A stretch of DNA of 64,000 nt from Candidatus Babelota bacterium (GCA_016191325.1 JACPOV010000008.1:910351-974350), one strand, 5' to 3'; positions 9,351 to 54,635 are shown, counted from the stretch's first letter. Notes: generated by a model from the sequence alone, not told the origin. Program-made: numbers and translations.

Positions 9351-10157
9351 ATGAACTTTTTATTATTGATATGTGCATTCATCATGCATTTTTCTATTTT
9401 TTCTATGGAAAATCCAGACAACAACAATCAATCTGCCAATGATGGATCGGCGATCATCAAAAAGTTAGATGGTCACCCAGCGATCGTTGATAAGATATTT
9501 CAATATGTCCAAGCCGCACGAATCAGAGAGCTTAATGGTTTTAAAGCATTAAAACCAAAAAATGAAAATGTTCTATTTTGCGATGAAGATGAAAATCCTA
9601 TCGCGATTGATCCTGTTCTTATTTTTGGCGGAATACAAACAAGCGGAGATAAGCAGATTCTTATTGCTCCCAATAAGACTATTCCGGGATTTCGTGTAAA
9701 AACCGAAGGAACTCCCAAGAAAATAAACGCGTTGCAGCAGGAAAATTACTCTATACAATTCGAAACTAAACCATCGAGCAAAGCATCGCCACAAGCAAGG
9801 GTAATTAAAACACTGGATGATAAAAAAGAAACACTTTATTCGCCAAAATCATCAATCGTTATTAATAACAATAACCCGCTAGCAAATCTTTTTGCTCGAG
9901 TTGCTCCTGCAACTACGCAGCCAGCTGCGCGCAGTCTTTTTTCGAATGGTAAGCCAAAAAGCGTTGGTCTCAAGACATTCGGAAATGGCCGCTTCGTTTA
10001 TATGGGCAATGATCACGTATTTGATCACCTCACCCATCAAATAGCTATTCTTCCGGAAAAAACAAATCTATCATCGGTTATATATTTCACGCCGACTATT
10101 TTGGAATCGGCTCCGACGAATAAATTGGCGAATATTGAATCTGCAAAAAAAGCATAA
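9351..10157 (+). CDS. Leader-bearing hypothetical protein (leader class ...S-M-E)
   Basis: The track ORF starts at 9339. The ATG at 9351 gives MNFLLLICAFIMHFSIFS|MENPDNNNQ. No family recognised. Confidence 0.65.
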   Translation: MNFLLLICAFIMHFSIFSMENPDNNNQSANDGSAIIKKLDGHPAIVDKIFQYVQAARIRELNGFKALKPKNENVLFCDEDENPIAIDPVLIFGGIQTSGDKQILIAPNKTIPGFRVKTEGTPKKINALQQENYSIQFETKPSSKASPQARVIKTLDDKKETLYSPKSSIVINNNNPLANLFARVAPATTQPAARSLFSNGKPKSVGLKTFGNGRFVYMGNDHVFDHLTHQIAILPEKTNLSSVIYFTPTILESAPTNKLANIESAKKA

Positions 10158-10195
10158 AAAAAATTAAATCTTTGTTTTGAAACTACAGGATTATT

Positions 10196-11014
10196 ATGAA
10201 TATTCTATTTTTAGCCTTTGTAACTTTCTCATTTTCTACCCTATGTATGGAAAATGGTTCTAAGAAAATCGTTAAAACATACCAGGGACATGCGCGCCTG
10301 CATAATGTAGACCTGAATAAGAGTGAAGCTACGACGCTAGAAACAAACGCTCAAAATTCAACTTGCGCATACGTACCTAAAAAAACAAAAGCTCCAAAAC
10401 ATGTAACTTTTGGATTAGTGAAAGTTATTGCTGATCAAGATAATAAGAACATAGTTTCTGAAGTAAAAAAAGATGATAAATGGGTTCACTTTGATGACGA
10501 AGTGAGCGTTGCGGCACATTTATTAAAACCTAAGCCTGCGTTCAGAATTCAGAAAAAAGTTACATTTATCCCTCAAGGGTTGAAGTTCGAGAGAGATCAA
10601 GACGGAAAACTCCAAAAACAGGACGGATGCTTCATCGTAAAAGAACCTAAGTCTGGCAAAACTCACCTATGGCAGCATGGGGCTCACGAGCAAGCTTTGC
10701 TTAACCATGTCGGGCAAAAAGGGATCCATACTATTGGCGATAACATCCAAGTCGTTATTAAGCCAGATACGGAAGCGCGATTGGTTACCACAGTTAACGC
10801 GCAAGATAGAAGACTCACCTTATATTCTCTCTTGCCGGCAAAAAACAGCGGATTAGACGCCGTTTCTGAAAGTTATGATATCAAGACTCTTGAAAATGAT
10901 GGCATTAATAAGATTATTGTTGGCCCCGATGCTCACGTTAAATTCCGTGGAACAAAATCAGGTTCACAAAAACCAATGATATTCTTTACTGAGCAAACGC
11001 AAGAAAAGAAATAA
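10196..11014 (+). CDS. Leader-bearing hypothetical protein (leader class ...C-M-E)
   Basis: MNILFLAFVTFSFSTLC|MENGSKK. AGGA lies 7 nt upstream of the ATG at 10196. No family recognised. Confidence 0.7.
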   Translation: MNILFLAFVTFSFSTLCMENGSKKIVKTYQGHARLHNVDLNKSEATTLETNAQNSTCAYVPKKTKAPKHVTFGLVKVIADQDNKNIVSEVKKDDKWVHFDDEVSVAAHLLKPKPAFRIQKKVTFIPQGLKFERDQDGKLQKQDGCFIVKEPKSGKTHLWQHGAHEQALLNHVGQKGIHTIGDNIQVVIKPDTEARLVTTVNAQDRRLTLYSLLPAKNSGLDAVSESYDIKTLENDGINKIIVGPDAHVKFRGTKSGSQKPMIFFTEQTQEKK

Positions 11015-11034
11015 TCGTTACTAGTTTTGTTTAA

Positions 11035-11068
11035 TAGGGATATCGCGCTCGATATCCCTATTTTTTTT
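11035..11068 (+). terminator. Rho-independent terminator between convergent genes
   Basis: Perfect 11-bp stem TAGGGATATCG (11035-11045) / CGATATCCCTA (11050-11060), 4-nt loop, then T8. It overlaps the stop codon of the convergent Nudix gene. Confidence 0.75.
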
Positions 11069-17675: not shown

Positions 17676-19772
17676 TTAAAATATTATTCCCATTTTGTTT
17701 ATCAAACGCTGTTGCAAAGGATGCGGCAAGGTGCCAAACAGGCTTTTAAGATCACTTGGCAATTCCACCGTCTTCTTAATTTTACCTAAATGAAGAATAA
17801 CTCTTACAAGTAATGCTTGTTCCAAAGTCAAACGAGCTACATAAGGGGTGACATCATCCCATATAATTACTGACTTACTGTTCATAAGAAAAAACGCGAG
17901 TACATTTTCACTCAAGGCAAACTGCATAATGTTATCATCAAAACCTGTTACGATCGGATAAGGTGAAGATAATGCAAGTTCCGGTATCCAAAGGGCTATT
18001 CCGTTAGAAGCAGAACTGTCTTTAAAAGAATACGCAAGCATAGTACCAGCACCATTAAAAACAAAGGAATTAGCAACCAAGGATCCCTTAATCTCCTGGT
18101 CATATACAGTTACCGTCTTCTGAAGTTTATGATCAGCAGCGTTTAGTATTCCTATGTGGACGTTATCCAATCCGACCGCAATTTCTTCCTTTCGAGGATT
18201 AAATACTGATTGGTACACTTTTTTCGGATAAGTACTCACCGTATCTTTATCCAAATCCCATAGAGTGAGAGTCAAATTGCTTATTCTTATCGCTAATTGT
18301 GTACCATGACTATTAAAAGAAAGAGAAACAATACATTGTGTAAGAGCTGTAAACTCGTTCAGCTTTTTTCCACTCATTGTGTCTACTGCTATAATATCAT
18401 TATGGATGCTCTCATAGGCCAATCGACGACCATCAGCACTCATCGTCACGAGGCGATTATACAATTTTCCTGCTGGATCAACTATTGTTTGAATGATTTT
18501 GCCTGTATTCCAATCAAGGATAACAATCTCAGATCCATTCCATTCATCAGCAGCTAGAACCGATCCACCAGAGATCAAAGATTTAAGTGATGTAAAATGA
18601 GGAATTTCAATTACTCTTACTTGTTTCCCTGTTTGCACATCAAAGATAGCAATACTATTACTCGCCATAGCAACAGCAATTTGCGTCGCATCACTATTAA
18701 AAGCTATCGCTCGTATATCAGTACGAATGCTCCCTAATGCTATTTTACCTTTGGTTTTCCAATCCTCTGGAGCAAAGGTAAGCGTTAGTTTTTGAGCCCA
18801 GCCAAAGAGTGCTGATTTATCTGCAAGCATGTTTGCAATGATTTTTTCCTGCAATGTTAACTGCAAATCTGGCACAATTTCATCAACTATCTCAAACAAT
18901 AAAGTTGGATTCTTAGCAACTTGTGTTAAAAAAGCAGGAGTAGCCACTTTATGCGCTAGCGCGCTTTCAACAAGATCAAGTACGGTTGGCATCGCCAAGT
19001 AATTTGCTACTGATAAGAGCTCGATAAGCTGTTTTCGCTCATAAGAAGAGAGATCTTCTGCTAACTTTTCTTTAAGGAGATTAGTTTTTTTGGCAAGGAT
19101 AAAAAGAAGGTTCCAGCCTATGCCGGTTACGTTGGGCAACGACATTTGTGTATCAGCAGGAAGCTCCTTAGGATCTTTATACCCCAAGAATTCTGATAAA
19201 TTTTTTAGTGTCTCCGAATTTTCAATGATGTTTATCGTTATAGCTCGCGCTTCACCTTCAGCAGGTATTGTGAGCGTATAATTAACAAGTGCTTTTTTTT
19301 CAAAGCTACTTGAAGGGATAGAGCAAACGTCGTGCTGCGATGATTTTTTTTGTGCAGACTTAATAGCAGGGGCAACGCCAGTAAGCGCAAATTGCTGATA
19401 TATCTTTTGCAGTACTGGTATATCTAAAAATCGTATTACTTTTCCTAGTTGTGTAAATGCGGTAGTGCCATGAAATTTTCTAAAATTGTTGAAGGTGATA
19501 ACCAGCTCGTCAGGCCTCGAAAGTTTAAGCAATACGCTCAGAATAAAATTAAATGATGTTTCATCCACATCAGGTAGACCAAATTCATTTGCAAACCTCT
19601 CATCAGCGATGATATCTTTAATAGTAGGCGATATTGCTGCTAACTCTTGCAATTGTTCTGATGAAATCCTAGCAGATTTATCATTTTTAAGATGCACCGT
19701 AATAGATGAAGGCAAACTTGCCTGCAACAAAGTGACAAAAAATAATAAATAAATTACTATCAACTTTTTCAT
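17676..19772 (-). CDS. Skp1/BTB-POZ-like (x2) + WD40-like beta-propeller protein, family member E1
   Basis: The preferred ATG at 19772 lies 4 nt after AAGGAG (the track uses GTG 19790). Leader MKKLIVIYLLFFVTLLQA. ITVHLKNDKSARISSEQLQELAAISPTIKDIIADE...GLPDVDETSFNFILSVL and LIELLSVANYLAMPTVLDLVESALAHKV resemble Skp1 ([13 protein letters not shown]...[10 protein letters not shown]...PLPNV; [28 protein letters not shown]). Propeller-type blades include IAVAMASNSIAIFDVQTGKQV and LTLTLWDLDKD. Confidence 0.7.
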   Translation of the reverse strand: MKKLIVIYLLFFVTLLQASLPSSITVHLKNDKSARISSEQLQELAAISPTIKDIIADERFANEFGLPDVDETSFNFILSVLLKLSRPDELVITFNNFRKFHGTTAFTQLGKVIRFLDIPVLQKIYQQFALTGVAPAIKSAQKKSSQHDVCSIPSSSFEKKALVNYTLTIPAEGEARAITINIIENSETLKNLSEFLGYKDPKELPADTQMSLPNVTGIGWNLLFILAKKTNLLKEKLAEDLSSYERKQLIELLSVANYLAMPTVLDLVESALAHKVATPAFLTQVAKNPTLLFEIVDEIVPDLQLTLQEKIIANMLADKSALFGWAQKLTLTFAPEDWKTKGKIALGSIRTDIRAIAFNSDATQIAVAMASNSIAIFDVQTGKQVRVIEIPHFTSLKSLISGGSVLAADEWNGSEIVILDWNTGKIIQTIVDPAGKLYNRLVTMSADGRRLAYESIHNDIIAVDTMSGKKLNEFTALTQCIVSLSFNSHGTQLAIRISNLTLTLWDLDKDTVSTYPKKVYQSVFNPRKEEIAVGLDNVHIGILNAADHKLQKTVTVYDQEIKGSLVANSFVFNGAGTMLAYSFKDSSASNGIALWIPELALSSPYPIVTGFDDNIMQFALSENVLAFFLMNSKSVIIWDDVTPYVARLTLEQALLVRVILHLGKIKKTVELPSDLKSLFGTLPHPLQQRLINKMGIIF

Positions 19773-19843
19773 AAGGCTCCTTTTGCTCACATTTTTTAAT
19801 CACTGTAGCAAAAAGGCTCAGAGACCCGCATTAATTTTGTAAT

Positions 19844-20434: not shown

Positions 20435-20529
20435 AGTAACTGCCTGCACACATTCTTTCTAAGAAGGTTTTCTACAAGCTTATCTTCTAAAAATGATCTA
20501 AGCAATTCACCAGAATATTATTTATAATC

Positions 20530-32469: not shown

Positions 32470-32754
32470 ATGAAAAAAATTATCATTGCCGTTATCATTG
32501 GATATTCGATTCCGAACTTGCTAGGGATGGAAGCGCGCTCTAATGAAATTAGCAAGCGAACTTACACGAGCACGCAAGTAACCCAATTTTATGCTCTAGA
32601 ATCGTGGTACACAAGCAGGTTACAACAGTTGATTGATAGCCATTTTGACCAACAAATTGATCGAGCCAATTTTGATTCTAAGGCGCAAAAGCTCTACAAC
32701 AATTTTAAAACTGGAAAAGATAGAATTTTAAGCAATAAGAAACAACGTATTTAA
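32470..32754 (+). CDS. Small leader-bearing protein (leader ...G-M-E)
   Basis: MKKIIIAVIIGYSIPNLLG|MEARSNE. 94 aa, no family recognised. Confidence 0.55.
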   Translation: MKKIIIAVIIGYSIPNLLGMEARSNEISKRTYTSTQVTQFYALESWYTSRLQQLIDSHFDQQIDRANFDSKAQKLYNNFKTGKDRILSNKKQRI

Positions 32755-32784: not shown

Positions 32785-33087
32785 ATGAAAAAAATCATAG
32801 CGGGCCTACTATTAACGTTCAATGCATCTTCGATTCTAGCAATGGATAACACGCGTCGCCAAACGCCGCCGACATCAAGTATTGAAAATCTTTTGGAGGG
32901 CTTATCCATTGAAGAAAAAAAAGAAATAGTCCAAACCTATGAAAAACTTAATAGCACCCTCCAGGTGGTCTCAACGCTCGTCCCAACAGAAGAAACCGAA
33001 ATTCAAAAGAAAAAAGAAGATTTAAAAAAGTTTTGTATCCGTAGGATTGCCAATTCTTCCCATCGCGACTCAAAAGATAGCAATTAG
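32785..33087 (+). CDS. Small leader-bearing protein (leader ...A-M-D)
   Basis: MKKIIAGLLLTFNASSILA|MDNTRRQ. 100 aa, followed by a clear terminator. Confidence 0.6.
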   Translation: MKKIIAGLLLTFNASSILAMDNTRRQTPPTSSIENLLEGLSIEEKKEIVQTYEKLNSTLQVVSTLVPTEETEIQKKKEDLKKFCIRRIANSSHRDSKDSN

Positions 33088-34646: not shown

Positions 34647-35606
34647 ATGGCGCTGTATATTATTTTAAGTGCTTTGGCATCGATTTTATGCAGCGAGGCC
34701 AGCGGAATGGAATTAGCCGAATTCAAGAATGAAAAAAAAGATTATTCTTTCCCAGAGCTGTTAGCTATCAAATTAGAAAACTATCCCGTTTGCCTTGCAA
34801 TCAGCGACGATAATAAATATATCGCGTTTGTTACTCGCTACCAAACGGGATCTCTGTTTAGCTTAAATGAAGATGCATCAAAAGTTGTATCAACGACGAG
34901 CATTAACGTCCCTGATTGTTTTTGCAAAACTCTCTATTTTGACGAACAATCGAACCTGAGTTTTTGGAATCCTTCTCAGCCATATCCGCTAAGAAATTTG
35001 ATATATAATGAAGGATGCGATGAACCGCACGCATTCTCCTACAAGAAATCATTGATAGCTCAATCGAGCCATGATATGCGAATCCGCATTTTTTGTTTAG
35101 ATCGCCCCGAGAATAAGAAAAAACATAAAACGTCGCTTCATCATACCTCCGGCTCTGTTACATCCCTTGCATTTAATCAAGAAGGATCGCTATTGGCATC
35201 AGGGGCACACGGTGGCGAACTTTTTTTATGGGATACTCATAGTTGGGAAAAAAAATCCACCAAACTTTCGGGGCACGTACTTGCATTATCGTTCAGCAAT
35301 GATGATCAAAGATTGGCAGCGGGAAGTACACACGGAGAAGTGCTCCTGTTCGATTCTACTAACCTCGAAATAATAAAAAGAATTGATTACGCTAACCCGA
35401 AAGGAATCCATCACGCAGTTTTTAACGCAGATGATTCACTACTTATCAGCGGATTAGATGATGCACTTTGTATTTCAGAATTGAAACCAACATTTAAACC
35501 GCAATCCCCCGCCCTTGAAAACTTAAAAATTGAAAATAAGGGCAATAAATCGCTCCCAGAGTTTTGGGAAAAACTCATAAAAAAAATCGGCTTTCTTAAA
35601 GGCTAA
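34647..35606 (+). CDS. Leader-bearing WD40-repeat protein (leader ...G-M-E)
   Basis: MALYIILSALASILCSEASG|MELAEFK. WD40 repeats GSVTSLAFNQEGSLLASGAHGGELFLWDTHSWE and VLALSFSNDDQRLAAGSTHGEVLLFDSTNLE. It starts 3 nt after the gatB stop. Confidence 0.75.
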   Translation: MALYIILSALASILCSEASGMELAEFKNEKKDYSFPELLAIKLENYPVCLAISDDNKYIAFVTRYQTGSLFSLNEDASKVVSTTSINVPDCFCKTLYFDEQSNLSFWNPSQPYPLRNLIYNEGCDEPHAFSYKKSLIAQSSHDMRIRIFCLDRPENKKKHKTSLHHTSGSVTSLAFNQEGSLLASGAHGGELFLWDTHSWEKKSTKLSGHVLALSFSNDDQRLAAGSTHGEVLLFDSTNLEIIKRIDYANPKGIHHAVFNADDSLLISGLDDALCISELKPTFKPQSPALENLKIENKGNKSLPEFWEKLIKKIGFLKG

Positions 35607-39774: not shown

Positions 39775-40794
39775 ATGATGGTTCTCTACTCTTTGTTACT
39801 TCTTTTTGGTTCCTATGCCCATTGCATGGAACAAAACAAATCGTTCACAATTCAAGAAACCCGCCAAGTTATTCTGAAGGATCCCGTATCGTTCATACAA
39901 GAAATAAGAAATCATCAGAAAAAAATGATGGGCGAAATAAAAACAAAAAATCTTGATACCGTAAACAACTGGCCCGCAAGCATCGAAATTATAAAAAAAT
40001 ATCAAGCAATCATGCCCCTTGTTCAACTTGGCGAATGCCCAGGAATCTCAGGAAGAGATTGTCCGCTTGATCGAATGCTCTTTCCCGAGTTACGAGATGC
40101 ATACGAGAAAGAGGTTTCAAAAGAATTGGCGGCGCAATTGCAAACACAGAAAGAAGTGCACCTTGCAAGTTTTGGTTCGGGTGATCTTTCACAAGACCTC
40201 ATTGTGTACACAAAAGCACTTGCTAAAGTGACCGATAACCCAAAACTCACCATTCATAACATTGATCTAGTTTATAAGTTTAACACGCCTTATTCGGATC
40301 TGATTGGAAAAAAGCGTCTAATTGAACACGAAGACTTTACAGAAAATTTTGCGATCGAGTTCATTTCAAAATCGTTACAAACTAAGTCTAAGCAGCCTCT
40401 ATCAAAAGAAACAGCACGAAATATTATTCTATCCGGCTTGCATTACACGTCATTAAAGAATAACAGCATGCTTGATTTTCTTAAAAATGCATTTCCCAAA
40501 GCAGCGATCTCGTTATATGTCCACCAATCGGCAGATAGTTATTTGCAATATATGAAGCGTGAAAAGCTAAGCCCGCCCACTATTGTTACTGCTTGCGATA
40601 TCGATAACGTGGAAGACTTCAAGTCCGGCAGCACCATTGCTTATGCTGATATCTCTAAAAAAGCATTTGAAAATCCTAACGCGGCCACTTTTTTATTGGC
40701 CCGCGAAGATCCATCGTCGACACAGGCGCAATTGCTCGTTATGAAAAAAAAGAATGACCAAACTCCTATTGCGCTCATATCTCTTTTTTCATAA
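39775..40794 (+). CDS. Leader-bearing protein, tandem paralog P1 (possible Rossmann/methyltransferase-like core)
   Basis: MMVLYSLLLLFGSYAHC|MEQNKS. Conserved with P3: EC-x7-CPL-x-R, VHLASFGSGDLSQDLIVYTKAL...LTIHNIDL, FLKNAFPKAAISLYVH, TACDID. Function not established. Confidence 0.7.
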   Translation: MMVLYSLLLLFGSYAHCMEQNKSFTIQETRQVILKDPVSFIQEIRNHQKKMMGEIKTKNLDTVNNWPASIEIIKKYQAIMPLVQLGECPGISGRDCPLDRMLFPELRDAYEKEVSKELAAQLQTQKEVHLASFGSGDLSQDLIVYTKALAKVTDNPKLTIHNIDLVYKFNTPYSDLIGKKRLIEHEDFTENFAIEFISKSLQTKSKQPLSKETARNIILSGLHYTSLKNNSMLDFLKNAFPKAAISLYVHQSADSYLQYMKREKLSPPTIVTACDIDNVEDFKSGSTIAYADISKKAFENPNAATFLLAREDPSSTQAQLLVMKKKNDQTPIALISLFS

Positions 40795-40834: not shown

Positions 40835-41878
40835 ATGAATTATTTATCGGCTATAATTTTATTTTTTTCAATTTTTAATGTTCCTCTTTCCTGCATGGAA
40901 AAAAAAACGCAATCAACAACAACAAAAAAATCTGCAGATTTTGAGAACTTAAAAAAAACAATTCTCTTAAAGCCAGTAGATCTATTGCAAGCTAATATGT
41001 TGTCTCAGGCTGCATTTGAAATTCAAGAACAAAAACTAGATGATGATGTTCCCAGAGAGGGGCTTGTAGCGCAAATAGAAAAAACAGTTCCATTTTTTTT
41101 TATTAATGAATGTGGTAGACACAGCAGTGAAGATTGTCTTTTAAGTCGTTTTAAAAATCCTAAACTCAGACAAAAATATGCTGAAATCGTTAGTGCTGCT
41201 CTTATTGAAAAGATTAACCGCACAGAAGAAACGGTTAAATATACTACAGTAAGCACACCGCTTTTTTCAGACTTGGAGATTTTAACGCGAACTCTTGATA
41301 AAAAAAGCAATGCCAAAATAGCGATTGATGTTGTTGATATCTTTCACGGCATTTTCGATTTATTTTGCACTGTTCAAAGCAAAGATCATTCTCTCGATAA
41401 TCTAATGGAAAAAACAATAGGACAAGAAGAGCTTGGCAAGATGCAAGAACTTGTTTCTACTCCTTGTTCAAGTGAAGTTAAAAAAGAACGGTTGGTTGAA
41501 AGCTTTTCTGTTGGAAAAACACGCAATAATCAATTACTCAATGGTTTGAGAAAGATGTTTCCAAAGGCCGATTTGACATTGTCCGTTTATAATTGTGTTG
41601 ATCATTATTTAAACCATGCAGCTGATGATGACTTCCTTGTTCCCGATATTGTCTGCGGGGACGATATTGAACACGAATTTGACCTGTCGGATAAAAATTT
41701 TGCATCGAAAGCCTTCCATGAACTCTCGATTGCTGCCCTTGTTGCCAATCCAACTGCTAAATCAATCCTCTTGAGCAAAAAATGCGAGGGCATTATTCAA
41801 ACGATAACTCGCAAGCCTACTACAACCTTCTATTATGAAGTTCAATACATAAAACCGTCAGTTGTAAAATTGAAATAA
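40835..41878 (+). CDS. Leader-bearing protein, tandem paralog P2 (divergent; Gly motif lost)
   Basis: MNYLSAIILFFSIFNVPLSC|MEKKTQ. Retains EC-x7-C-LL-SR, KMFPKADLTLSVY and CGDDIE, but has YTTVSTPLFSDLEIL in place of ASFGxG. Confidence 0.65.
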   Translation: MNYLSAIILFFSIFNVPLSCMEKKTQSTTTKKSADFENLKKTILLKPVDLLQANMLSQAAFEIQEQKLDDDVPREGLVAQIEKTVPFFFINECGRHSSEDCLLSRFKNPKLRQKYAEIVSAALIEKINRTEETVKYTTVSTPLFSDLEILTRTLDKKSNAKIAIDVVDIFHGIFDLFCTVQSKDHSLDNLMEKTIGQEELGKMQELVSTPCSSEVKKERLVESFSVGKTRNNQLLNGLRKMFPKADLTLSVYNCVDHYLNHAADDDFLVPDIVCGDDIEHEFDLSDKNFASKAFHELSIAALVANPTAKSILLSKKCEGIIQTITRKPTTTFYYEVQYIKPSVVKLK

Positions 41879-41994: not shown

Positions 41995-43029
41995 ATGTTT
42001 AATCTTCTTTGCCTGTTCTTCATTGTTCCCTTTTACGTTATTGGAATGGATGAGCTGCCTTCAATTGAAACAACAAAAAACCAGATAATGAGTAACGAAT
42101 ATTTAAAAAATCATGAAATTATACGAAAAAAAGTTTTTCAAGAAATAGATGATCTTGGATTGACCAAAGAAGAAAAGTATACAGAGCGCATAGCCCTTCT
42201 GGAAAAGTACAAAAAAAAACATCCGCTCATAGCGCTATCGGAATGTGCATCCTCTCAAATGGGGGTTTGTCCATTGAGCAGAGCCATACATCCCAACTAT
42301 CGAGATACATATGAAAATACAGTTTCTCAAGAACTTGCACGACAATTAAAAAACCAAAAAACAATATCCATTGCAAGCTTTGGGTGCGGGCAACTTCTTT
42401 CTGATGCCATTATCTATACCAAAGCCCTTGAAACAACTAAGTCAGCAGAGCTCATCATTCATCAGATTGATCACCAATTAATTATTCCTCAATTATATTT
42501 GAATAAAACAGAAGAGAATCGACGCGTCAAAAGACAAACATTTTCATCAGAAGAAACCTTAAGTTCTATTCAAAAAACCTTAGAATCAACTAAAAACGAA
42601 TTTAGCGAAAACTCTGAAGAAAAAGCTTTGGCATCAGACAGCCTGGCTCTAAAAAATACAATACTGGACGAATTACATACTCAATCATTTCTGCATAATA
42701 GTCTATTAGATTACCTGCAAGAAGCATTCCCTCAAACTACTATTTCCATGTACGTTCACGGAACCGCACAAGATTATTTGCAAGATATAGAAAATAAAAA
42801 ATTCCCAAAACCGAATATGGCAATAGCGGCAGATATCGACGATGGATATGGAATGGAAAGAAATAGCGTGGCAGACTATTATTTAGTCAGATCAAAAGCT
42901 TTAGAAAATGATAATTCAGCAGCATATATTCTTGCACGATCTACAGAAAATCCAGATACCCAAGCGCAAATCAGATGTATAAAGATGGAAAATGGACAAC
43001 GAATTGAAGCATCTATGAAGAAATTATAG
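41995..43029 (+). CDS. Leader-bearing protein, tandem paralog P3
   Basis: MFNLLCLFFIVPFYVIG|MDELPS. ECASSQMGVCPLSR, ISIASFGCGQLLSDAIIYTKAL...LIIHQIDH, YLQEAFPQTTISMYVH, AADIDD. Confidence 0.7.
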   Translation: MFNLLCLFFIVPFYVIGMDELPSIETTKNQIMSNEYLKNHEIIRKKVFQEIDDLGLTKEEKYTERIALLEKYKKKHPLIALSECASSQMGVCPLSRAIHPNYRDTYENTVSQELARQLKNQKTISIASFGCGQLLSDAIIYTKALETTKSAELIIHQIDHQLIIPQLYLNKTEENRRVKRQTFSSEETLSSIQKTLESTKNEFSENSEEKALASDSLALKNTILDELHTQSFLHNSLLDYLQEAFPQTTISMYVHGTAQDYLQDIENKKFPKPNMAIAADIDDGYGMERNSVADYYLVRSKALENDNSAAYILARSTENPDTQAQIRCIKMENGQRIEASMKKL

Positions 43030-43110: not shown

Positions 43111-43491
43111 GGGGGCGTACTGGCTTCGACGTTCTATAAACATCGTAGAAAGCATGCCGAGTTTGACTGAGACTCGTACAAAATTGGTCAAAAACAGAAA
43201 TGCAAACGCATCTCAACCGAATCCTAACGCTTACAACGCAGGTTTTGCCCTCGCTTAATCGTTAAGAGACACTTGTCAGTAAGGCGTGTCTATCAGTTGA
43301 ACTGACACGTATTAATCAGATAGAACTGATGCGGTAGATTTTTCAGTTGCGTAGCGTATCAGTATCACGAAACTGGCTCATGCGCATTCCTGTGTTTTCG
43401 AGGGGCGTATGAGTATATTCGAAAAATAAGCATGTAGCGTTTTACGTTTTTTATTTTGCGGACATGGGTTCGATTCCCATCGCCTCCACCA
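43111..43491 (+). ncRNA. ssrA: tmRNA (SsrA), one-piece
   Basis: The 5' GGGGGCGTACTGGCTTCGACG pairs with the 3' ...GGACATGGGTTCGATTCCCATCGCCTCCACCA (T-arm plus acceptor, G3:U70 alanine identity pair, CCA encoded). The tag ORF 43202-43258 (GCA AAC GCA ... GCC CTC GCT TAA) encodes ANASQPNPNAYNAGFALA. Confidence 0.9.
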
Positions 43492-43878: not shown

Positions 43879-44301
43879 ATGAAGTTATTTTTCACATTCA
43901 TTACATTTTCAATTACCTGCACTCTTTGCTCTATGAATATGAGCAGTAAACCTAAACCTATGCAAATTGATACGTATGTTTCGTTACATACCGGCGAAAC
44001 CGTTTTTACGGAGACGTTCAAAAACTTTTGGGGTAACATTCTGCGCGTTGCTCGAAGTGGAGATTATTCTCAAGATCTGCATGTTTCGCTTTTGGCTCTT
44101 TGCAAAGAAGGCACAGCGCTACCAGACCACCATAAAAAAATATTGGAAAAACACAGTCTTCCTACCAGCAGCGAGGAATTCGATGTGCATAAACGTTCTA
44201 TCATCATTGCAGCCCATGCAAATTGTAAGTTGATCATCAATCCATCAGATCCTAAAGATCTAACCGGCCAATTCATACTAAAACCCGAGAATATCCCCTA
44301 A
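43879..44301 (+). CDS. Small leader-bearing protein (leader ...S-M-N); intact paralog of 46393..46815
   Basis: MKLFFTFITFSITCTLCS|MNMSSKP. AGGGAGAG lies upstream. VSLHTGETVFTETFKNFW...SQDLHVSLLALC...INPSDPKDLTG aligns with the interrupted ORF at 46.4 kb. Confidence 0.65.
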   Translation: MKLFFTFITFSITCTLCSMNMSSKPKPMQIDTYVSLHTGETVFTETFKNFWGNILRVARSGDYSQDLHVSLLALCKEGTALPDHHKKILEKHSLPTSSEEFDVHKRSIIIAAHANCKLIINPSDPKDLTGQFILKPENIP

Positions 44302-45760: not shown

Positions 45761-46213
45761 ATGAATTATAAACTATTGTTTATGACACCTCTTTTCTATC
45801 CGCTTATAAATTGCATGGATCAGCAAAAACTTACGGAGCGACAACAAGGTATTAATGCCTATCAGTCGGTGCAACCAGCTGTTGCAAAACTCATGAAGCA
45901 TCCAAAAAATGATCCATGGCCTTTGATAACTCTAAACCATATCATCAACGGCAACAGGAAACAGGATCTCGACGGTCAATATAAAGAAAACGGTAAAGAA
46001 TATGAACAGGGCATTGGGATAGATGGCTTAAAGAATATCAAAGTTCTTGAAGAATACGGATTTCCCAAAAAAGCTCCCGAATATACCCCTTTAGTCAAAG
46101 AGGCAATAAATTTTGCAATCAACACCTCTAAATTGGGCGCAGAACTCAAAGCAGAAAAAACAGTAACGGAATTAGATGTTATTCGTGCACAATTGGTATC
46201 AAAAAAGAAATAG
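45761..46213 (+). CDS. Small leader-bearing protein (leader ...C-M-D)
   Basis: MNYKLLFMTPLFYPLINC|MDQQKL. AGGGGGA lies upstream. 150 aa. Confidence 0.65.
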   Translation: MNYKLLFMTPLFYPLINCMDQQKLTERQQGINAYQSVQPAVAKLMKHPKNDPWPLITLNHIINGNRKQDLDGQYKENGKEYEQGIGIDGLKNIKVLEEYGFPKKAPEYTPLVKEAINFAINTSKLGAELKAEKTVTELDVIRAQLVSKKK

Positions 46214-46392: not shown

Positions 46393-46815
46393 ATGAAATA
46401 TATTTTTGCAGCAATAGCATTTTTTCCTACCTTAATTCATTCTATGGATAATCGAACGGTTGTTTTACATACAGGACAAGCTGTATCCCAAGAAAAATTC
46501 GATGAGTGATGGCCAAAGTTCAAAAAATTGCTCACCAGTAATACGTTGCAAAGTGACCTTCCCTATTGCTTGTATTCTCTCTGCCATGGACAAGAATTAT
46601 TGTTCAAGGATAGGAAACAACAAGTTGGCGATGCCGGCTTTCCTACCCATCCATCACAAATAGATGAAGACACAAAAAAAATTATTCTTGCTACTAATGC
46701 ATTATCACTTTCTCCTCAAAAAAGAATAGAATTGGAAAGAGAGAAAGATTTTACATTTGACTTCATTAACCCAATCGATCCAACAGAAGGATACTGCGAA
46801 TCTACTTGGGATTAA
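46393..46815 (+). pseudogene. Leader-bearing paralog of 43879..44301 interrupted by one in-frame TGA (46507-46509)
   Basis: Manual translation from ATG 46393 (AAGGAGA upstream): MKYIFAAIAFFPTLIHS|MDNRTVVLHTGQAVSQEKFDE*WPKFKKLLTSNTLQSDLPYCLYSLCHGQ...INPIDPTEGYCESTWD. Both halves are in the same frame and total 141 codons including the internal TGA, versus 140 in the intact paralog. The ORF track shows only the 3' part (46528..46815). Confidence 0.65.
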
Positions 46816-46847: not shown

Positions 46848-47258
46848 ATGCGTATACTATTATGCCTTTCATTTATTAGTTGCCAATCGATTTTATCGAT
46901 GGATCACGAGAGCATTTGGAAAAAAATTGCACAACTCGAGCATCAAAAGAATAAAAGTGGTTTATCTCGAACACTTGCGGGGTTAGCGCAAGATGAAAAA
47001 ATGGATGCACAAGATAAAAATAACCTCCCACAATTAGAACAACTTGGGCTGTTAGAAAATGGCCAGCTGTCTACGCAAATAAAAGATTACGTAAGTAAGT
47101 CATACCAAATGAATTTCATCACGATGGCATTGGAATTTGTAAAATTAAACGATACCAAGCAACGATTTGAAGTTTTTATTCCTGAAACCGGAATGGAAGT
47201 TTTAGCTAATGATATGATTGCAGATGAAGCAGTCCAAAACGCCAATCCGCATAAATAG
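46848..47258 (+). CDS. Small leader-bearing protein (leader ...S-M-D)
   Basis: The ATG at 46848 follows AAGGAA and gives MRILLCLSFISCQSILS|MDHES (the track ORF starts earlier, at 46806). Confidence 0.6.
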   Translation: MRILLCLSFISCQSILSMDHESIWKKIAQLEHQKNKSGLSRTLAGLAQDEKMDAQDKNNLPQLEQLGLLENGQLSTQIKDYVSKSYQMNFITMALEFVKLNDTKQRFEVFIPETGMEVLANDMIADEAVQNANPHK

Positions 47259-48497: not shown

Positions 48498-51173
48498 ATG
48501 TATATTAAGCCTCCCTATCAAGAAACCGTTCAAGCCCTTTCTGAATATTTTAAAACAAATCTAACCGATGGCCTTTCTACTCAGCAAGCGCAATACGGTT
48601 TGAAAGAATATGGGCTCAATCAGCTACCGGAAAAAAAGCCGGTTTCACTGTTCCGAATTTTTTTAAGACAGTTTGAGAGTCCACTTATCTATGTACTCGC
48701 TGCCGCTGCAAGCATCATAATGATTCTTGGAAATTCAATTGATGCATTGATTGTTAGCGTTATTCTTTTTTTTAATGCTCTCATTGGAACAATCCAAGAA
48801 GGAAGAACGCAGACGCTCCTTGCTAGTTTAAAAAACTATTTAAAAACTGAAGCTCTGGTAGTGCGCGATGGAAAGCAAATTATTATTCCATCGAAAGAAG
48901 TTGTCCCTGGGGATATTATTATCATCCAGCAAGGAGAACAAGTACCAGCCGATTCTCGACTCATTAATGCTCATCTACTTATGGTTGACGAAGCATTACT
49001 CACTGGTGAATCTATGGGCGTTAATAAAACTGCTAATGCTATTGCAGATGAACGCGGCATTGCAAATCAATCAAATATGGTTTTCAAGGGAACGTATGTG
49101 CTTTCTGGAAATGCTTCCGCACTCGTTGTTGCGATAGGTGCGAAAACTGAGGTCGGAAAAATTGGAACTCTTGCAGAAACTATTCATACCGATATGCCGC
49201 TCAAAAAAGATCTTGATCGCATTTCGCTCTGGGTGCTCATTTTTATTGTAACCGCATGTATATTCCTATTTATTATTGGCATTTGGCATGGTCGCTCATG
49301 GACAGATTTACTCATTATTTTGAGCGCTTTATTTATCTGTGTCGTTCCTGAAGGGTTGCCAGTTGTTTTCACATTAACACTAGTTAATGGTGCATATCAG
49401 ATGGCAAAGAAAAATATCGTAGTAAAAAGACTTCAGGCAGTGGAAGGATTGGGACGCACTTCCGTTATCGTACTCGATAAAACCGGGACCCTTACCAAAA
49501 ATGAAATGATGGTTTCTCGAGTTTATACAAATCATCATTGGTACGAAATTACCGGTCAGGGTTATCACCCCCAAGGTTCAATGATCAGTGACGGTTCCAT
49601 CATAAAAAATATACATGAGCATCCAAATCTCGATCTCATGGCGCAGACAACCTCATTGCTTAATCGAACCCAAATGAATATAGATCAAAAAACAGGACTC
49701 TATTCCCTTAAAGGCGATCCTACACAGGCAGCTTTATACGTTTTTTCTCAAAAAGCAGGCTACGATCCGGCTCAATTGCGTAATCAATACATATTTTATG
49801 CTGAAATACCTTTTCAAGCAGATTTGCGTTATCAAGCAGATTTTTATCTGAAAGATAATAAACTTATAGCCCTCATAGTGGGCTCTCCTGAATTGGTGAT
49901 GAATCGCTCAACTATAACAACGCAAGATGACAAAAATGCTCTCGCTGATTTGCTTAGAGGCGGGCTTCGTACGATCGCTGCAGCGTATAAAGAATTTGAT
50001 TTACCAACGAAAAAAGAACTCAGTGGAGAAGTATTAAAAAATATGATCTCAGAAAATTTAATATTTTTGGGATTCTTCGGCCTACAAGATACCATTCGCC
50101 CAGAAGTTAGCGATATGATCAAGCAAGCTCGCGCGAGCGGCTTATGCGTAGTGATGGCAACCGGCGATCATCAGGGTACAGCGCTTTACGTCGCGAAAGC
50201 GGTTGGCATTTACAAAGAAGGCGATACGGCAATTGATGGGCCAGAATTTAAAAAATTGAGCGCGCAAGAACTTACTAAAGAATCAAAAGTAGCAACAGTT
50301 TATTCACGTCTTTCGCCAGAAAATAAACTGCAACTTATCGAAGCTTATCATCAACGGCGCCAAGTCGTAGCGATGACGGGAGACGGAGTAAATGATGCGC
50401 CTTCGTTGGTTGCCGCAGATATTGGAATTGCCATGGGAAGGATTGGCACTGAAGCTGCAAAAGAAGTTGCTGATATAATTCTGCTGGACGATTCATTTGC
50501 AAGTATTATGGATGCGATCGCCTACAGTGAACATATGTTTTCCACCCTCCGGCGTGTAATTCTTTATTTTTTTGCCACTAATCTCGCGGAAGTCCTGCTC
50601 ATACTTTTTTCACTGGGTTTAAATATAGCCACATTACCACTGAATGCGGTGCAGATTTTTTGGCTTAATTTAGTTACTGATGGTTTTTTAAATGTCGCGC
50701 TCGCAGTTGAGCCACAGGAAAAAAACCATTATTTGAAAGTATCGCACCGTCGTACCACACTCATTGATAAATCATTACTATTAAAAACATTTTATTTGTC
50801 TCTGCCTATGGCAATCGGTTCGCTCGGAGTTTTTTTATGGTACCAATCAACAAGTATTCCACTGGCTCAAACCATGGCCTTGGTCACCATGGCACTTTAC
50901 CAGTGGATGAACGCGTGGAATTGCAGATCTCAACATTTAACTAACTTCCAAATTGGTTTTTTTAGCAACCATTGGCTGATTGCAGCAACCTCATTCGTTT
51001 TATTTCTGCAGCTCCTCCTGGTTTATGCGCCATTTATGCAGCGTTTCTTTCATACGGTACCCTTAACCCTAAACCAATGGTTTCTAATTTTTATACTTAC
51101 TAGTTCATTAGTAATTATTGAAGAAGCACGCAAATTTATTGCGCAATTTTTGCAACAAAAAGGAATGCAATAA
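48498..51173 (+). CDS. P-type cation-transporting ATPase (P2-type, Ca2+/Mg2+-ATPase-like)
   Basis: N-terminal cation-ATPase domain (GLSTQQAQYGLKEYGLNQLPEKK), TGES, phosphorylation site VLDKTGTLTKNEM, hinge MTGDGVNDAPSL, about 10 TM segments. Confidence 0.93.
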   Translation: MYIKPPYQETVQALSEYFKTNLTDGLSTQQAQYGLKEYGLNQLPEKKPVSLFRIFLRQFESPLIYVLAAAASIIMILGNSIDALIVSVILFFNALIGTIQEGRTQTLLASLKNYLKTEALVVRDGKQIIIPSKEVVPGDIIIIQQGEQVPADSRLINAHLLMVDEALLTGESMGVNKTANAIADERGIANQSNMVFKGTYVLSGNASALVVAIGAKTEVGKIGTLAETIHTDMPLKKDLDRISLWVLIFIVTACIFLFIIGIWHGRSWTDLLIILSALFICVVPEGLPVVFTLTLVNGAYQMAKKNIVVKRLQAVEGLGRTSVIVLDKTGTLTKNEMMVSRVYTNHHWYEITGQGYHPQGSMISDGSIIKNIHEHPNLDLMAQTTSLLNRTQMNIDQKTGLYSLKGDPTQAALYVFSQKAGYDPAQLRNQYIFYAEIPFQADLRYQADFYLKDNKLIALIVGSPELVMNRSTITTQDDKNALADLLRGGLRTIAAAYKEFDLPTKKELSGEVLKNMISENLIFLGFFGLQDTIRPEVSDMIKQARASGLCVVMATGDHQGTALYVAKAVGIYKEGDTAIDGPEFKKLSAQELTKESKVATVYSRLSPENKLQLIEAYHQRRQVVAMTGDGVNDAPSLVAADIGIAMGRIGTEAAKEVADIILLDDSFASIMDAIAYSEHMFSTLRRVILYFFATNLAEVLLILFSLGLNIATLPLNAVQIFWLNLVTDGFLNVALAVEPQEKNHYLKVSHRRTTLIDKSLLLKTFYLSLPMAIGSLGVFLWYQSTSIPLAQTMALVTMALYQWMNAWNCRSQHLTNFQIGFFSNHWLIAATSFVLFLQLLLVYAPFMQRFFHTVPLTLNQWFLIFILTSSLVIIEEARKFIAQFLQQKGMQ

Positions 51174-51646
51174 TGCTATTTTTTCTCGCTTTATTATTTG
51201 TTTTTTCATCAACTTCATGTATGGATAATTCCTTTAACAATTCCAAGAAAGAAAAAGAAAATATTCTAATATCAGACGAAAATGAGACCGATTATCTGGT
51301 AGATAAACAAACCTATAACGAATATTGGCCGCGTCTACAAAAAATTCATAAGGACATTTCTAATGCACCATCGAAAGCAGCGTATCAACTTTTAATTAAG
51401 TTGAGCTCAGGGCAGCAGTGCATTATTTCAAAAGAATCTGCAAAAATGCTTGAGCGATACGAATTCCCTCTAGATCAGAACAAATACACCGATGATCTTT
51501 GCGAAGTGATAGTAGTATTCAATACCATTAACGGGACTAAAAATTCAGATAAGGCGATTAACTTTTCCAACTCAACCATTGATTGGTCGCAATTTAATCA
51601 AACAAATAAAAATGATCCTGCCAATACGAACAAACAAAGTCAGTAA
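51173..51646 (+). CDS. Small leader-bearing protein (leader ...C-M-D), start overlaps the ATPase stop (TAATG)
   Basis: MLFFLALLFVFSSTSC|MDNSFNN. AAGGAA lies upstream, within the ATPase 3' end. Confidence 0.6.
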   Translation: MLFFLALLFVFSSTSCMDNSFNNSKKEKENILISDENETDYLVDKQTYNEYWPRLQKIHKDISNAPSKAAYQLLIKLSSGQQCIISKESAKMLERYEFPLDQNKYTDDLCEVIVVFNTINGTKNSDKAINFSNSTIDWSQFNQTNKNDPANTNKQSQ

Positions 51647-51744: not shown

Positions 51745-52416
51745 ATGAAATCGGTCTGCATCAAAACGTATCTAACTCTCTTTACAATGCTGCTCTGCCC
51801 CAAAATGTATTCAATGGCGGGAGTTGCTCAAATGCCTTCAGATAAAAAAGTTGCCGATCTTTCAATAAAAGATTTGCAACAAGTGATTAAGGATACCATA
51901 CAAAGCTTGCTCGCGTTCGTAGATCCATATTCAATTTTGCAAAAACTTGATGAAGTAAAAGATGCTGAGCAAAAACTCAAAGCGGATTTTGAAACAAAAG
52001 AGCGTCAGATTGTTGATATTCAAAATAAGATCAAACAAAAAGAGGCAGAATTTCAAGCAAAGGCTCCTGCACTTAGCCCCGATGCTCGTGAAAAATATCA
52101 ATCCGATATTATGAGCTTACGCGCACAAGGGCAAACAAAAATGGAAGGCTTGCAAACGTTCGTGCAACAAGCGCAACAAGAGCTCGAAATGCGTTTCTTT
52201 AAAAAAATCCAAGAGGCTGCTGAAGAAGTTGCAAATGAAGAAGGAATCATTCTCGTGCAAGGCGCCGGCATTGTATACGGTTCTAAAGCGCTCAATATTT
52301 CTGATAAAGTTTCAGCTCGCATGAATAAAAAATACAACGAAGAAAAACGCAAAAGCATGAAACCAGTACTAACTCCAGCTGCGCAACCATCTTCATTGCC
52401 AACAGCACCAAAATAA
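51745..52416 (+). CDS. OmpH/Skp-like periplasmic chaperone
   Basis: Leader followed by a long coiled-coil region (KLKADFETKERQIVDIQNKIKQKEAEFQAKA) and C-terminal FKKIQEAAEEVANEEGIILVQGAGIVYGSKALNISDKVSARMNKKY, which fits the OmpH family pattern. Confidence 0.55.
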   Translation: MKSVCIKTYLTLFTMLLCPKMYSMAGVAQMPSDKKVADLSIKDLQQVIKDTIQSLLAFVDPYSILQKLDEVKDAEQKLKADFETKERQIVDIQNKIKQKEAEFQAKAPALSPDAREKYQSDIMSLRAQGQTKMEGLQTFVQQAQQELEMRFFKKIQEAAEEVANEEGIILVQGAGIVYGSKALNISDKVSARMNKKYNEEKRKSMKPVLTPAAQPSSLPTAPK

Positions 52417-52419
52417 CTC

Positions 52420-52965
52420 ATGCAAATCGCTCCAATAACAGCGTTAAAAGATATTAAAGCAATTATCGGGCTAGGAAATCCTGGCCCGAAATTTGCCCGT
52501 ACGCGGCACAATATCGGTTTTATGATCGTTGATGCACTGGCAGATCAAGCAAATGCTTCGTGGCACGCCAAAGGAAATATGGAAGTTGCCGCTATAGAGA
52601 TCAATGGCAATAAAGTTATTTTGGTTAAACCACAAACGTTTATGAATGTATCAGGAAAAGTTTTACCCGAACTGGCCAAGCAAGGCATCAAAAAAGAAAA
52701 TATTCTCGTGATTCACGATGAATTGGAATTGCCGTTTGGTAAACTTAAGGTACGCGCAGGCGGCAGCGCCAAAGGGCATAATGGATTGAAATCCATTATC
52801 GAACTCGTCGGCCCGGAATTTGCACGCCTCTCTGTCGGCATCGATCGCCCCGCAAATCGAGAACAAGTGCCCGATTATGTATTGCAAAATTTTTCGCAAA
52901 ATTCTGCAGATCTTGATGCAATGATTGATCAGGCTATACAAAAAATTGAAGAAATATGCATTTAA
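52420..52965 (+). CDS. pth: Peptidyl-tRNA hydrolase
   Basis: IIGLGNPGPKFARTRHNIGFMIVDAL, GGSAKGHNGLKSI. Confidence 0.93.
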   Translation: MQIAPITALKDIKAIIGLGNPGPKFARTRHNIGFMIVDALADQANASWHAKGNMEVAAIEINGNKVILVKPQTFMNVSGKVLPELAKQGIKKENILVIHDELELPFGKLKVRAGGSAKGHNGLKSIIELVGPEFARLSVGIDRPANREQVPDYVLQNFSQNSADLDAMIDQAIQKIEEICI

Positions 52966-53030
52966 AAAAAATAGATTTCTCAAAGTTAAAAAAATTTTGC
53001 ATATAAAAGACGCAGCATTCAGTTTATATT

Positions 53031-54635
53031 CTAGTTTAATTTGAAATAATCTATAAGTTCAGTTTTTTGCTCTGAATTTAAACTATCGAATATTTTTTTT
53101 TGCATTTCTCCTTTTTTCAAATCAATCGGAGTATTTTTATTTTGCAAATGAAATAAAGCCGTTATTAATGCTAACTGGCTGGGGGAATTACACTGATTAA
53201 TAGCGGAGATTAACGGTATTGAATAAAGTGTTTTTTCAGAACATATATAATTAATTCCTGTAGAAGTAACTGCTCCATTATTGTTAGTTATATATGGCAT
53301 TTTAACCATTTTTTTTCTCATCAAATCATAAGCTACGGTTCTAATATCTCCATCTTTTTTAGCTATTGACCCTATGGCAAAATTTCCTCTTAACATAGCC
53401 CAATGTATATTTTGATCAGTTTTAGCTTGACTCCAATTACCATATTTATGGAGGTCATAATCTTTATCCAAATAATAGAGATCTGTGCCGACATCAGTAA
53501 ATCCAATCACATCTTCATAAACCGATCCGCTAGCGCCTTGAGGTGTATCAACTTGAAGCCAACCATCCATTCCTTGGACTATTACTCTTTCGTCTTTACA
53601 AAATTTAACACTTTTGGGAACTTTTGAACCAAATGGGCTTATTTTTCTAAAGGAATTTTTTTTAACAAGATCATACCATACAATTTCTTTTCCATTTATA
53701 TAAACCAGTTGCTTTTCCGATTTATCAAAAGAAATAAGGCCATCACTATTATTGTCCGATCTAATATCGTCAATAATTGCTTTATTTGAATCTAGTTGCA
53801 GTACATAGCCTTTTTGCGAAGAATTCTTAATTCCTAAAATAGCTAGATATTTACCAAACGGACTCAAGAAAATAGTTTTTAGCTGAGATATTTTATCAGA
53901 ATCTACAGCTAGTTCCTGCTGAAGCTTTCCCGAGAGAGTATCGTGGATATTAATTTTTTTATTTGATTCGCCAATAGCTAAAGAATTGCCATTTTCGGTA
54001 AAGCTAATCGTTTGGATTTCTCCTTTTGTACCCAAATGGTGTACTTTTCCTGTGGCTAGATCCTCTACCTTCAGATTAGTCCAAACAGATGTGTTCGCTA
54101 TAAATTGTTCCGTGGGGCTTAACCAAATAACATCAGACGCCGAATATCTTTTTTTTGCGATACGATCAATTACAATTCTTTTGGCTTCTTTTAATGTTTT
54201 ACGATCATTAAAAATTTCAGAATCAAATTTTGTGAAAAATTGTTTATCGAAACCGCTTAACTCTTCTTTCGATTCTTTTAAATTATTCTCTAAATCCTCG
54301 ATCAAATTATCAAATACTATATTTCCGTACATGCTCTTGTTGATAAAAGGAAGCTTGACCGGTTCTTTCTTGGCCCCCATCTCTCTCAAACGATTCAATT
54401 CCAAACTGGATAATTTCTCTTTAGTGGAGGTAGAATTGTCCCCAAAAACTGCCTCTCTAAAAAAACTACTCTTCTCAACAATATTCTCAATTACAGCTCC
54501 ATCTTTTTCTAAATGAGTACCGTCACTTAACTCCAGTAAATAGCTCGGTGGATTATTCGCACTAACTGAGTACTTATCCATAGAATAGGAAAAACTCGTA
54601 TGAACCATTAAAAAAAGCATTATAAAATAAATCAT
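53031..54635 (-). CDS. BTB-like + beta-propeller protein, family member E4 (leader ...S-M-D)
   Basis: The ATG at 54635 lies 7 nt after AGGGA and gives MIYFIMLFLMVHTSFSYS|MDKYS. YLLELSDGTHLEKDGAVIENIVEKSSFFREAVFG resembles the start of a BTB domain. Blades include NSLAIGESNKKINIHDTLSGK. The tail LALITALFHLQNKNTPIDLKKGEMQKKIFDSLNSEQKTELI matches the E1-E3 tails. Confidence 0.65.
   Translation of the reverse strand: MIYFIMLFLMVHTSFSYSMDKYSVSANNPPSYLLELSDGTHLEKDGAVIENIVEKSSFFREAVFGDNSTSTKEKLSSLELNRLREMGAKKEPVKLPFINKSMYGNIVFDNLIEDLENNLKESKEELSGFDKQFFTKFDSEIFNDRKTLKEAKRIVIDRIAKKRYSASDVIWLSPTEQFIANTSVWTNLKVEDLATGKVHHLGTKGEIQTISFTENGNSLAIGESNKKINIHDTLSGKLQQELAVDSDKISQLKTIFLSPFGKYLAILGIKNSSQKGYVLQLDSNKAIIDDIRSDNNSDGLISFDKSEKQLVYINGKEIVWYDLVKKNSFRKISPFGSKVPKSVKFCKDERVIVQGMDGWLQVDTPQGASGSVYEDVIGFTDVGTDLYYLDKDYDLHKYGNWSQAKTDQNIHWAMLRGNFAIGSIAKKDGDIRTVAYDLMRKKMVKMPYITNNNGAVTSTGINYICSEKTLYSIPLISAINQCNSPSQLALITALFHLQNKNTPIDLKKGEMQKKIFDSLNSEQKTELIDYFKLN

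Follow-up and report, generated by a model that had tools for sequence, protein, structure and literature searches.

The window analysed here, a stretch of 64,000 nucleotides from Candidatus Babelota bacterium (JACPOV010000008.1:910351-974350), encodes 15 proteins in which a hydrophobic amino-terminal leader is followed at once by methionine (Met). The reading that we favour, and to which we give somewhat better than even chances, is that these leaders are signal peptides of the general secretory (Sec) pathway which signal peptidase I would cut directly before the Met, making it a lineage-specific, selected first mature residue. The window is assigned to Candidatus Dependentiae (Babeliales), and two of its proteins match database entries of a Candidatus Dependentiae bacterium exactly; the Dependentiae (TM6) are intracellular parasites of protists. 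Its G+C content is about 39%, and many WD40 and orphan proteins lie among housekeeping genes that include those for MurJ, Lon, an ATP synthase subunit, RNase E/G, GatB, TsaD, SmpB, transfer-messenger RNA (tmRNA), a P-type ATPase, Skp, Pth and AlaRS.

A first-pass annotation of the window had listed 14 leaders ending directly before Met-Asp, Met-Glu or Met-Asn, and all 14 junctions translate exactly as given there. The fifteenth is that of the Skp/OmpH protein at 51745, identified by Pfam, which reads MKSVCIKTYLTLFTMLLCPKMYS↓MAG (arrows mark the junction throughout). The description of the open reading frames (ORFs) as otherwise unrelated needs qualification. The proteins at 39775, 40835 and 41995 are paralogs (family A), those at 43879, 46393 and 51173 are related to one another (family B; hhalign on the mature parts only, E 2.9e-5), and 34647 and 54635 both encode WD40 proteins, so that three to six of the 14 are paralogous and roughly 9-10 independent lineages are represented. 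Of the cargo types named, WD40 holds for these last two, while the BTB-like assignment was not recovered by Pfam. Searches of Pfam, NCBIfam and the PDB sequences gave nothing for most of the cargo proteins, and cargo function could therefore not separate the Met class from the ordinary leaders that are also present in the window.

Frequency of methionine at the junction

A six-frame scan was made for an ATG start, a hydrophobic leader of 14-25 residues, one of A/G/S/C, then Met, then one of D/E/N and 30 open codons, and was set against an order-2 Markov null based on the window's own trinucleotide statistics (100 simulations). The scan returned 13 matches in the window against 0.02 expected, the null maximum being 1, which bears out the earlier claim that the Met at the junction is not a product of chance; with another residue in place of Met there were at most two matches for any amino acid. 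The same scan gave no match with Met in 100 kb of Escherichia coli K-12 and 13 matches in 42 kb of the closest relative, where two loci overlap and some matches are counted twice. Among 258 kb of other Dependentiae loci, Met was found in seven of 69 scan matches.

An independent measure, the residue-slot test, records which residue immediately precedes the first acidic position beyond the hydrophobic core. Met occupies this slot in 10 of 21 window proteins, 25 times its background frequency of 1.9%, in 30 of 80 family A representatives (22 times background) and in six of 52 proteins from the other Dependentiae loci (6 times background). These two approaches replaced a simple -3/-1 cleavage predictor that proved unreliable, placing many sites inside Ser-rich cores and undercounting the motif. 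The residue behind the Met is also restricted, being Asp, Glu or Asn in 14 of the 15 window cases and in most family A cases; an acidic residue at +2 accompanies the Met in 13 of the 15 leaders, as against three of the 14 ordinary leaders of the window. About half of the exported proteins in the genome have a Met-class leader.

Conservation of the methionine

Dependentiae DNA amounting to about 0.4 Mb was sampled in all. It includes a syntenic 21-kb locus (L019) from a relative with about 84% protein identity, which served for ortholog comparison, and TsaD-anchored loci from 17 other Dependentiae genomes and metagenomes, in which no orthologs of any Met-class protein were found. Of nine ortholog pairs from the window and L019, eight retain the Met; position +2 remains Asp, Glu or Asn in all nine, often with exchange of Asp and Glu, and position -1 remains small in all nine, with exchange of Cys and Ser. 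At positions +3 to +6 identity falls to about 22%, and divergence is also seen immediately upstream of the cut. The sole loss of Met is in the ortholog of 34647, where ATG has become TTG alongside a change to a classical A-N-A site.

Comparisons over greater distances were possible for three families. A word-indexed protein search returned only 41995 itself for that query, and 39775 itself with one ortholog; an exhaustive hidden Markov model search revealed family A, for which the profile search collected 373 homologs, the named ones all from Babeliales, Dependentiae or TM6. A signal peptide is present in 121 of the best 150 representatives, and Met directly follows it in about 55 (about 45%) when judged by eye; stricter automated counts place Met there in 30-34 representatives, 30 with Asp or Glu next. 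The following 100 or so residues of this family vary in length and cannot be aligned. In an alignment of ten family B sequences, which share 13-31% identity with the first, only three columns are invariant, and the Met of the junction is one of them. Among Skp orthologs at 60-94% identity, Met directly follows the leader wherever a leader is visible, in five sequences that read S↓MA in two cases and C↓MT, A↓MT or P↓MA in one each; another call, which is truncated, starts with MYG↓MA. The window leader of Skp ends in CPKMYS↓MAG, and both the Skp leaders and the 5-10 residues beyond the Met vary among orthologs.

Membership of a leader class is inherited, the ordinary leaders keeping their own +1 residue (A↓Q at 59531, A↓Q or A↓E at 62395), and the conserved protein beside tsaD has Met in only about one of 10 orthologs among the loci retrieved. 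On these comparisons, the Met is under selection.

The slot beside pth (pth-alaS in the window and in locus L027) holds a different gene in each genome, each encoding a signal peptide and then Met: a 534-residue WD40 protein in the window (53031-54635, minus strand), an unrelated 298-residue protein in L027 (11202-12098, minus strand) and a 586-residue WD40 protein in locus L026 (5101-6861). The accessory genes of the two relatives at this syntenic site read A↓ME (L027) and A↓MG (L026).

Evidence on the translation start

The leaders appear to be translated, as had been proposed from the placement of Shine-Dalgarno (SD)-like motifs before the outer rather than the inner ATG. An SD-like tetramer 5-18 nt upstream was found before the outer ATG in 12 of 15 cases and before the inner ATG in one of 15; for comparison, such a motif precedes 20 of 28 other genuine starts in the window and 8% of random internal ATG codons. 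Translational coupling to upstream genes points the same way, the start at 51173 overlapping the stop of the upstream ATPase gene by one base and that at 34647 lying 3 nt after the gatB stop. In L019 every leader stays open and hydrophobic, with no stops, indels in multiples of three and synonymous changes present, and the SD motifs upstream are conserved. The ratio of nonsynonymous to synonymous substitution rates in this comparison is 0.62 for the leaders and 0.26 for the mature parts. The leader frame is also intact in the upstream DNA of all four family A representatives annotated from ME or MD for which this was checked, and no consistent -10 promoter box was seen by eye before the inner ATG.

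Database entries P0002, P0003, P0047, P0069, P0082 and P0131 nevertheless start at the conserved inner ATG, and the Skp calls P0156-P0158 are likewise truncated, at internal ATGs. The practical effect of gene finders choosing the inner ATG is that genes are mis-started, signal peptides are missed and secretomes are underestimated.

Anatomy of the two leader classes

Each of the 15 leaders contains a 9-residue stretch that is free of charged residues and averages at least about 2 on the Kyte-Doolittle hydropathy scale. The leaders are 16-23 residues long, with a hydrophobic core of about 10-14 residues. Residue -1 is A, G, S or C in 15 of 15 window cases and in all 40 cases of the residue-slot test (10 from the window and 30 from family A); position -3 is I, L, V, A, S or T in nearly all Met-class leaders of both sets. 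This -3/-1 pattern fits cleavage by signal peptidase I directly before the Met.

The coexistence of two leader classes, already noticed in the first-pass annotation, is clear from the ordinary leaders of the window, which have Ala at -1 in 11 of 14 and Met at +1 in none. That annotation had also remarked on the scarcity of Lys and Arg in the n-region. The observation itself stands, since eight of the 14 listed leaders lack both residues as against two of the 14 ordinary ones (with Skp included, Lys or Arg is present in seven of 15 Met-class and 12 of 14 ordinary leaders), but it appears to be peculiar to this genome and not to the motif: most Met-class members of family A elsewhere begin MKK or similar. 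Composition, charge and Cys content of the mature region gave no clear separation of the two classes, and WD40 proteins are present in both.

Other known types of export signal were considered and rejected. The leaders have no lipobox of the kind cut by signal peptidase II: Cys stands before the Met in five of 15, preceded by L, H, S, N and S, and is not conserved, having become Ser in two of three such orthologs. A twin-arginine signal is excluded by the lack of RR in all 15. Type IV prepilins do not fit either, for the hydrophobic stretch lies before the cut, Gly is at -1 in only three of 15 and a polar region follows the Met. Nor are these substrates of the Q-rule of Bacteroidetes, as +1 is Met, not Gln, in all 15. 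Neither the window nor the other Dependentiae loci retrieved yielded a signal peptidase gene.

Gln is the predicted first mature residue in five of the 14 ordinary leaders (5126, 31010, 57977, and 60115 and 62736 on the minus strand), often with Glu next. About two thirds of the predicted first mature residues in the window are either Met or Gln.

Weighing the explanations

According to the favoured reading, the leaders are translated Sec-type signal peptides, signal peptidase I most likely cuts at a predicted site between the small residue (A/G/S/C) and Met, and the mature protein would begin with Met-Asp or Met-Glu, or with Met-Ala or Met-Thr in Skp. Met at P1' is kept by selection in a heritable subset of the exported proteins of Dependentiae/Babeliales, one that is especially frequent in this lineage. 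Its action would be on the bacterial side, either as a prime-side determinant of processing or in defining the new N-terminus, and the acidic residue at +2 would end the hydrophobic stretch and fix the register of cleavage. The presence of the Met in the housekeeping periplasmic protein Skp as well as in accessory secreted proteins favours such a bacterial-side role. Of the four proposals of the first-pass annotation, that of a dedicated sorting or cleavage motif comes closest, given a -3/-1 pattern that fits a cut before the Met and a Met that is selected.

Several points weigh against this reading. About half of the signal peptides of the same genome lack the Met, and the peptidase therefore cannot require it. 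The tight coupling of Met to an acidic residue could mean that a dipeptide is recognised, rather than being a mere effect of register. Several of the window cases are paralogous, so the counts are not independent, and the strength of the rule differs widely among Dependentiae lineages. In L019, ordinary leaders too are frequently followed by an unchanged first mature residue (about four of eight), so retention of the Met in orthologs at this short distance is not decisive alone, and the deeper comparisons weigh more.

An alternative that we regard as unlikely keeps the same cut and supposes that the N-terminus Met-Asp/Glu/Asn/Gln is selected for an effect in the host after release, in accessory proteins only. 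Such an N-terminus would resist host methionine aminopeptidase, escape N-degron recognition and resemble a NatB-type N-terminus; in a variant modelled on the processed N-terminus left by the Plasmodium export element (PEXEL), it would be the signal for a second step of export. The tight coupling of Met to Asp, Glu or Asn in the window and in most family cases is in keeping with this, as is the nature of the Met class, which apart from Skp consists of accessory, fast-evolving genes that have no orthologs in genomes at 54-66% TsaD identity and sit at synteny breakpoints. Against it, the periplasmic chaperone Skp has Met at +1 wherever the leader of an ortholog can be seen, with Ala or Thr behind it, WD40 proteins occur in both leader classes, and NatB acts mainly on nascent chains. 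Published genome analyses provide background on export in the phylum: signal peptides are present on 44% of the coding sequences of Chromulinavorax (PMC6561590), Sec and type II secretion are the sole export route detected in Babela (PMC4378268, PMC4776705), and 79 of 126 Babela ankyrin proteins have a signal peptide (PMC4378268). The published prediction that Dependentiae ankyrin proteins with signal peptides are active in the host cytoplasm (PMC4378268) speaks for the host-directed reading. With Sec and type II secretion alone, and signal peptides on so large a share of the proteome, it is conceivable that Met-Asp/Glu tags host-directed proteins; that the exposed dipeptide is such a functional tag, whether as a second-step export signal or as a NatB-type mimic, we consider doubtful.

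Three further explanations were weighed. Dual initiation, in which the inner ATG would be conserved as a second start giving a leaderless cytoplasmic isoform beside the exported one, is improbable. The codon is invariably ATG, and its sole substitution is TTG, also a possible start codon but equally the expected one-step mutation from ATG; U-rich upstream sequence could favour SD-independent initiation, gene finders often pick the inner ATG, and isolated precedents exist in Salmonella PagC and OmpX (PMC11005335). The rate of SD motifs at the inner ATG is nonetheless that of random internal ATG codons, as against about 70-80% at genuine starts, and all four family members checked that are annotated from the inner ATG still have their leader frame. 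A start codon has no need of the small residue that always precedes the Met, and neither Skp nor effectors of a phylum limited to Sec and type II secretion would have an obvious use for a cytoplasmic isoform. More improbable again is the view that the Met is a neutral relic, the old start codon of cytoplasmic genes that gained signal peptides by 5' extension into T-rich DNA. The Met class does consist mostly of young orphan genes, and the leaders look unpolished here, with eight of 15 lacking Lys and Arg and with Ala rarely at -1. Yet the Met has survived to about 20% identity in family A and down to 60% in Skp while its flanks are scrambled, stands exactly after a small residue every time and is followed by Asp or Glu, although Lys or Asn is the usual residue behind a start Met in this genome. 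Skp, moreover, is periplasmic in other Gram-negative bacteria, and the leaders have no DNA similarity of the kind that would mark a portable module, sharing only the junction ATGGA(A/T); the earlier suggestion of a portable leader module fused to ancestral starts is not supported. Finally, the possibility that only the inner ATG is used, and that the leader is an open but untranslated T-rich 5' region, is close to refuted. T-rich DNA does translate into hydrophobic residues, and some gene callers do choose the inner ATG, but an artefact of annotation accounts neither for the excess of scan matches nor for SD motifs before the outer ATG only, frames that remain open in relatives with in-frame indels, the constant small residue at -1, two outer ATGs that overlap or closely adjoin the preceding gene, and the need of Skp for a signal peptide.

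Comparison with known systems

Selection on Met at the first mature position, which is the reading preferred here, finds its nearest parallels among known processing systems. The leaders share with classical Sec/signal peptidase I substrates the small uncharged residue at -1, the aliphatic or small residue at -3, the acidic early mature region and the hydrophobic core, and they differ in having Met at +1 in about half of the cases and, in this genome, many n-regions without positive charge and S, C or G rather than Ala at -1. To our knowledge, Met at the first mature position is rare in other bacteria, and we know of no enzyme that modifies Met at +1.

In the Q-rule of Bacteroidetes, Gln at +1 after the signal peptidase I site is cyclised to pyroglutamate and is not a sorting signal (PMC5837995); a later study reports that it makes extracytoplasmic proteins more stable (PMC10653852). 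The likeness lies in a phylum-specific preference at +1 that extends over many unrelated exported proteins, housekeeping ones included, and that is seen from sequence statistics. The Met described here, by contrast, cannot cyclise, applies to some substrates only and is tightly linked to Asp or Glu at +2, and Gln at +1 is itself present in the ordinary leaders. The Q-rule is the closest precedent for the Met rule, which would be comparable in kind, as a phylum-level rule for the first mature residue that calls for no new secretion system.

Work on LepB and on SipW/TasA shows that processing can depend on residues both before and after the cleavage site and that a dedicated peptidase may serve special substrates (PMC10269814). 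As with SipW/TasA in Bacillus subtilis, two leader classes occur in one cell and mature-side residues would matter for processing; unlike that case, no signal peptidase gene accompanies the substrates in the window or the retrieved loci. Cleavage of the Plasmodium PEXEL exposes a defined N-terminus on host-destined proteins, with an acidic or polar second residue. The exposed N-terminus is similar, but the protease, compartment and organism are others and Met is not involved, so that PEXEL offers an analogy only. For PagC and OmpX, isolated proteoforms with and without the signal peptide are backed by ribosome profiling (PMC11005335), and an in-frame ATG near the end of the signal peptide is common to both situations; here, however, initiation signals are missing at the inner ATG, and the pattern is systematic, with a small residue always in front of the Met.

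A literature search of incomplete coverage found no published description of the Met rule, and the Dependentiae genome papers (PMC6561590, PMC4378268, PMC4776705) do not mention Met after the signal peptide. If upheld, the rule would be a second example, after the Q-rule, of a phylum-specific first-residue rule for exported proteins. The first mature residue is usually treated as almost unconstrained. The Met would mark a large heritable subclass of the unusually big secretome of Dependentiae and would offer a simple sequence handle on candidate host-interaction proteins in a phylum that has almost no genetics. It is directly testable in cultured Babela, Chromulinavorax and Vermiphilus.

Features, neighbouring genes and minor observations

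The 15 junctions are collected in Table 1.

Table 1. Leaders followed directly by Met in the window. Coordinates are those of the leader; orthologs are those in L019, with the arrow at the junction.
Leader	Next residues	Coordinates	Strand	Protein and remarks
MNFLLLICAFIMHFSIFS	ME	9351..9410	+	268-residue orphan protein
MNILFLAFVTFSFSTLC	ME	10196..10252	+	272-residue orphan protein
MKKIIIAVIIGYSIPNLLG	ME	32470..32532	+	94 residues; ortholog G↓ME
MKKIIAGLLLTFNASSILA	MD	32785..32847	+	100 residues; ortholog A↓ME
MALYIILSALASILCSEASG	ME	34647..34712	+	WD40 protein; start 3 nt past gatB stop; ortholog VANA↓LE
MMVLYSLLLLFGSYAHC	ME	39775..39831	+	Family A, predicted methyltransferase-like fold; ortholog S↓ME with GTG outer start
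MNYLSAIILFFSIFNVPLSC	ME	40835..40900	+	Family A; ortholog S↓ME; Prodigal start is the inner ATG
MFNLLCLFFIVPFYVIG	MD	41995..42051	+	Family A
MKLFFTFITFSITCTLCS	MN	43879..43938	+	Family B; ortholog S↓MD
MNYKLLFMTPLFYPLINC	MD	45761..45820	+	150 residues
MKYIFAAIAFFPTLIHS	MD	46393..46449	+	Family B; in-frame TGA 46507-46509; ortholog S↓MD
MRILLCLSFISCQSILS	MD	46848..46904	+	136 residues; ortholog S↓ME
MLFFLALLFVFSSTSC	MD	51173..51226	+	Family B; ATG shares 1 nt with P-type ATPase stop; ortholog C↓ME
MKSVCIKTYLTLFTMLLCPKMYS	MA	51745..51819	+	Skp/OmpH; Met in 5/5 Skp with visible leader
MIYFIMLFLMVHTSFSYS	MD	54576..54635	-	534-residue WD40 protein

The ORF at 46393 is only 38 residues long owing to the in-frame TGA, beyond which the frame continues as a homolog of a 141-residue protein of a relative. 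Across 46393-46815 the leader resembles that of the L019 gene at 14752 and the body that of the neighbouring L019 gene at 15228; the locus is either a chimeric pseudogene or the result of a sequencing error.

The AlphaFold model of family A is confident (predicted local distance difference test score, pLDDT, 88.6) and has a weak predicted likeness to class I S-adenosylmethionine-dependent methyltransferases (Foldseek E 2e-4, TM-score 0.31); the PDB profile match is to histamine N-methyltransferase, with E 0.28. Conserved motifs of the family are E-C…C-x-L-S-R and A-D-I-Q-D-E, and many members have an extra N-terminal region of about 100 residues with a (V/I)T(K/E)PYxP motif. Its three paralogs in the window sit between smpB and the tmRNA gene (43111-43491), in the region 39292-43491. 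The same gap holds two family A copies in a close relative and one on a JGI contig, and is only about 400 nt long in locus L005; the interval between smpB and ssrA appears to be a hot spot of accessory genes.

Two small secreted proteins encoded at 35927-36792 combine ordinary A-x-A-type leaders with low-complexity mature parts rich in Gly, His, Tyr or Thr, such as RGGGGHGGGGHFGGGGGHWGGYGG; three genes of this kind are present in the relative, and one of them encodes a Fasciclin domain. On the minus strand at 17676-24846 lie three tandem WD40 proteins of about 700 residues, two with ordinary signal peptides, while the third (20530-22632), which reads LFMMGSC↓PP, may have a lipoprotein-type signal.

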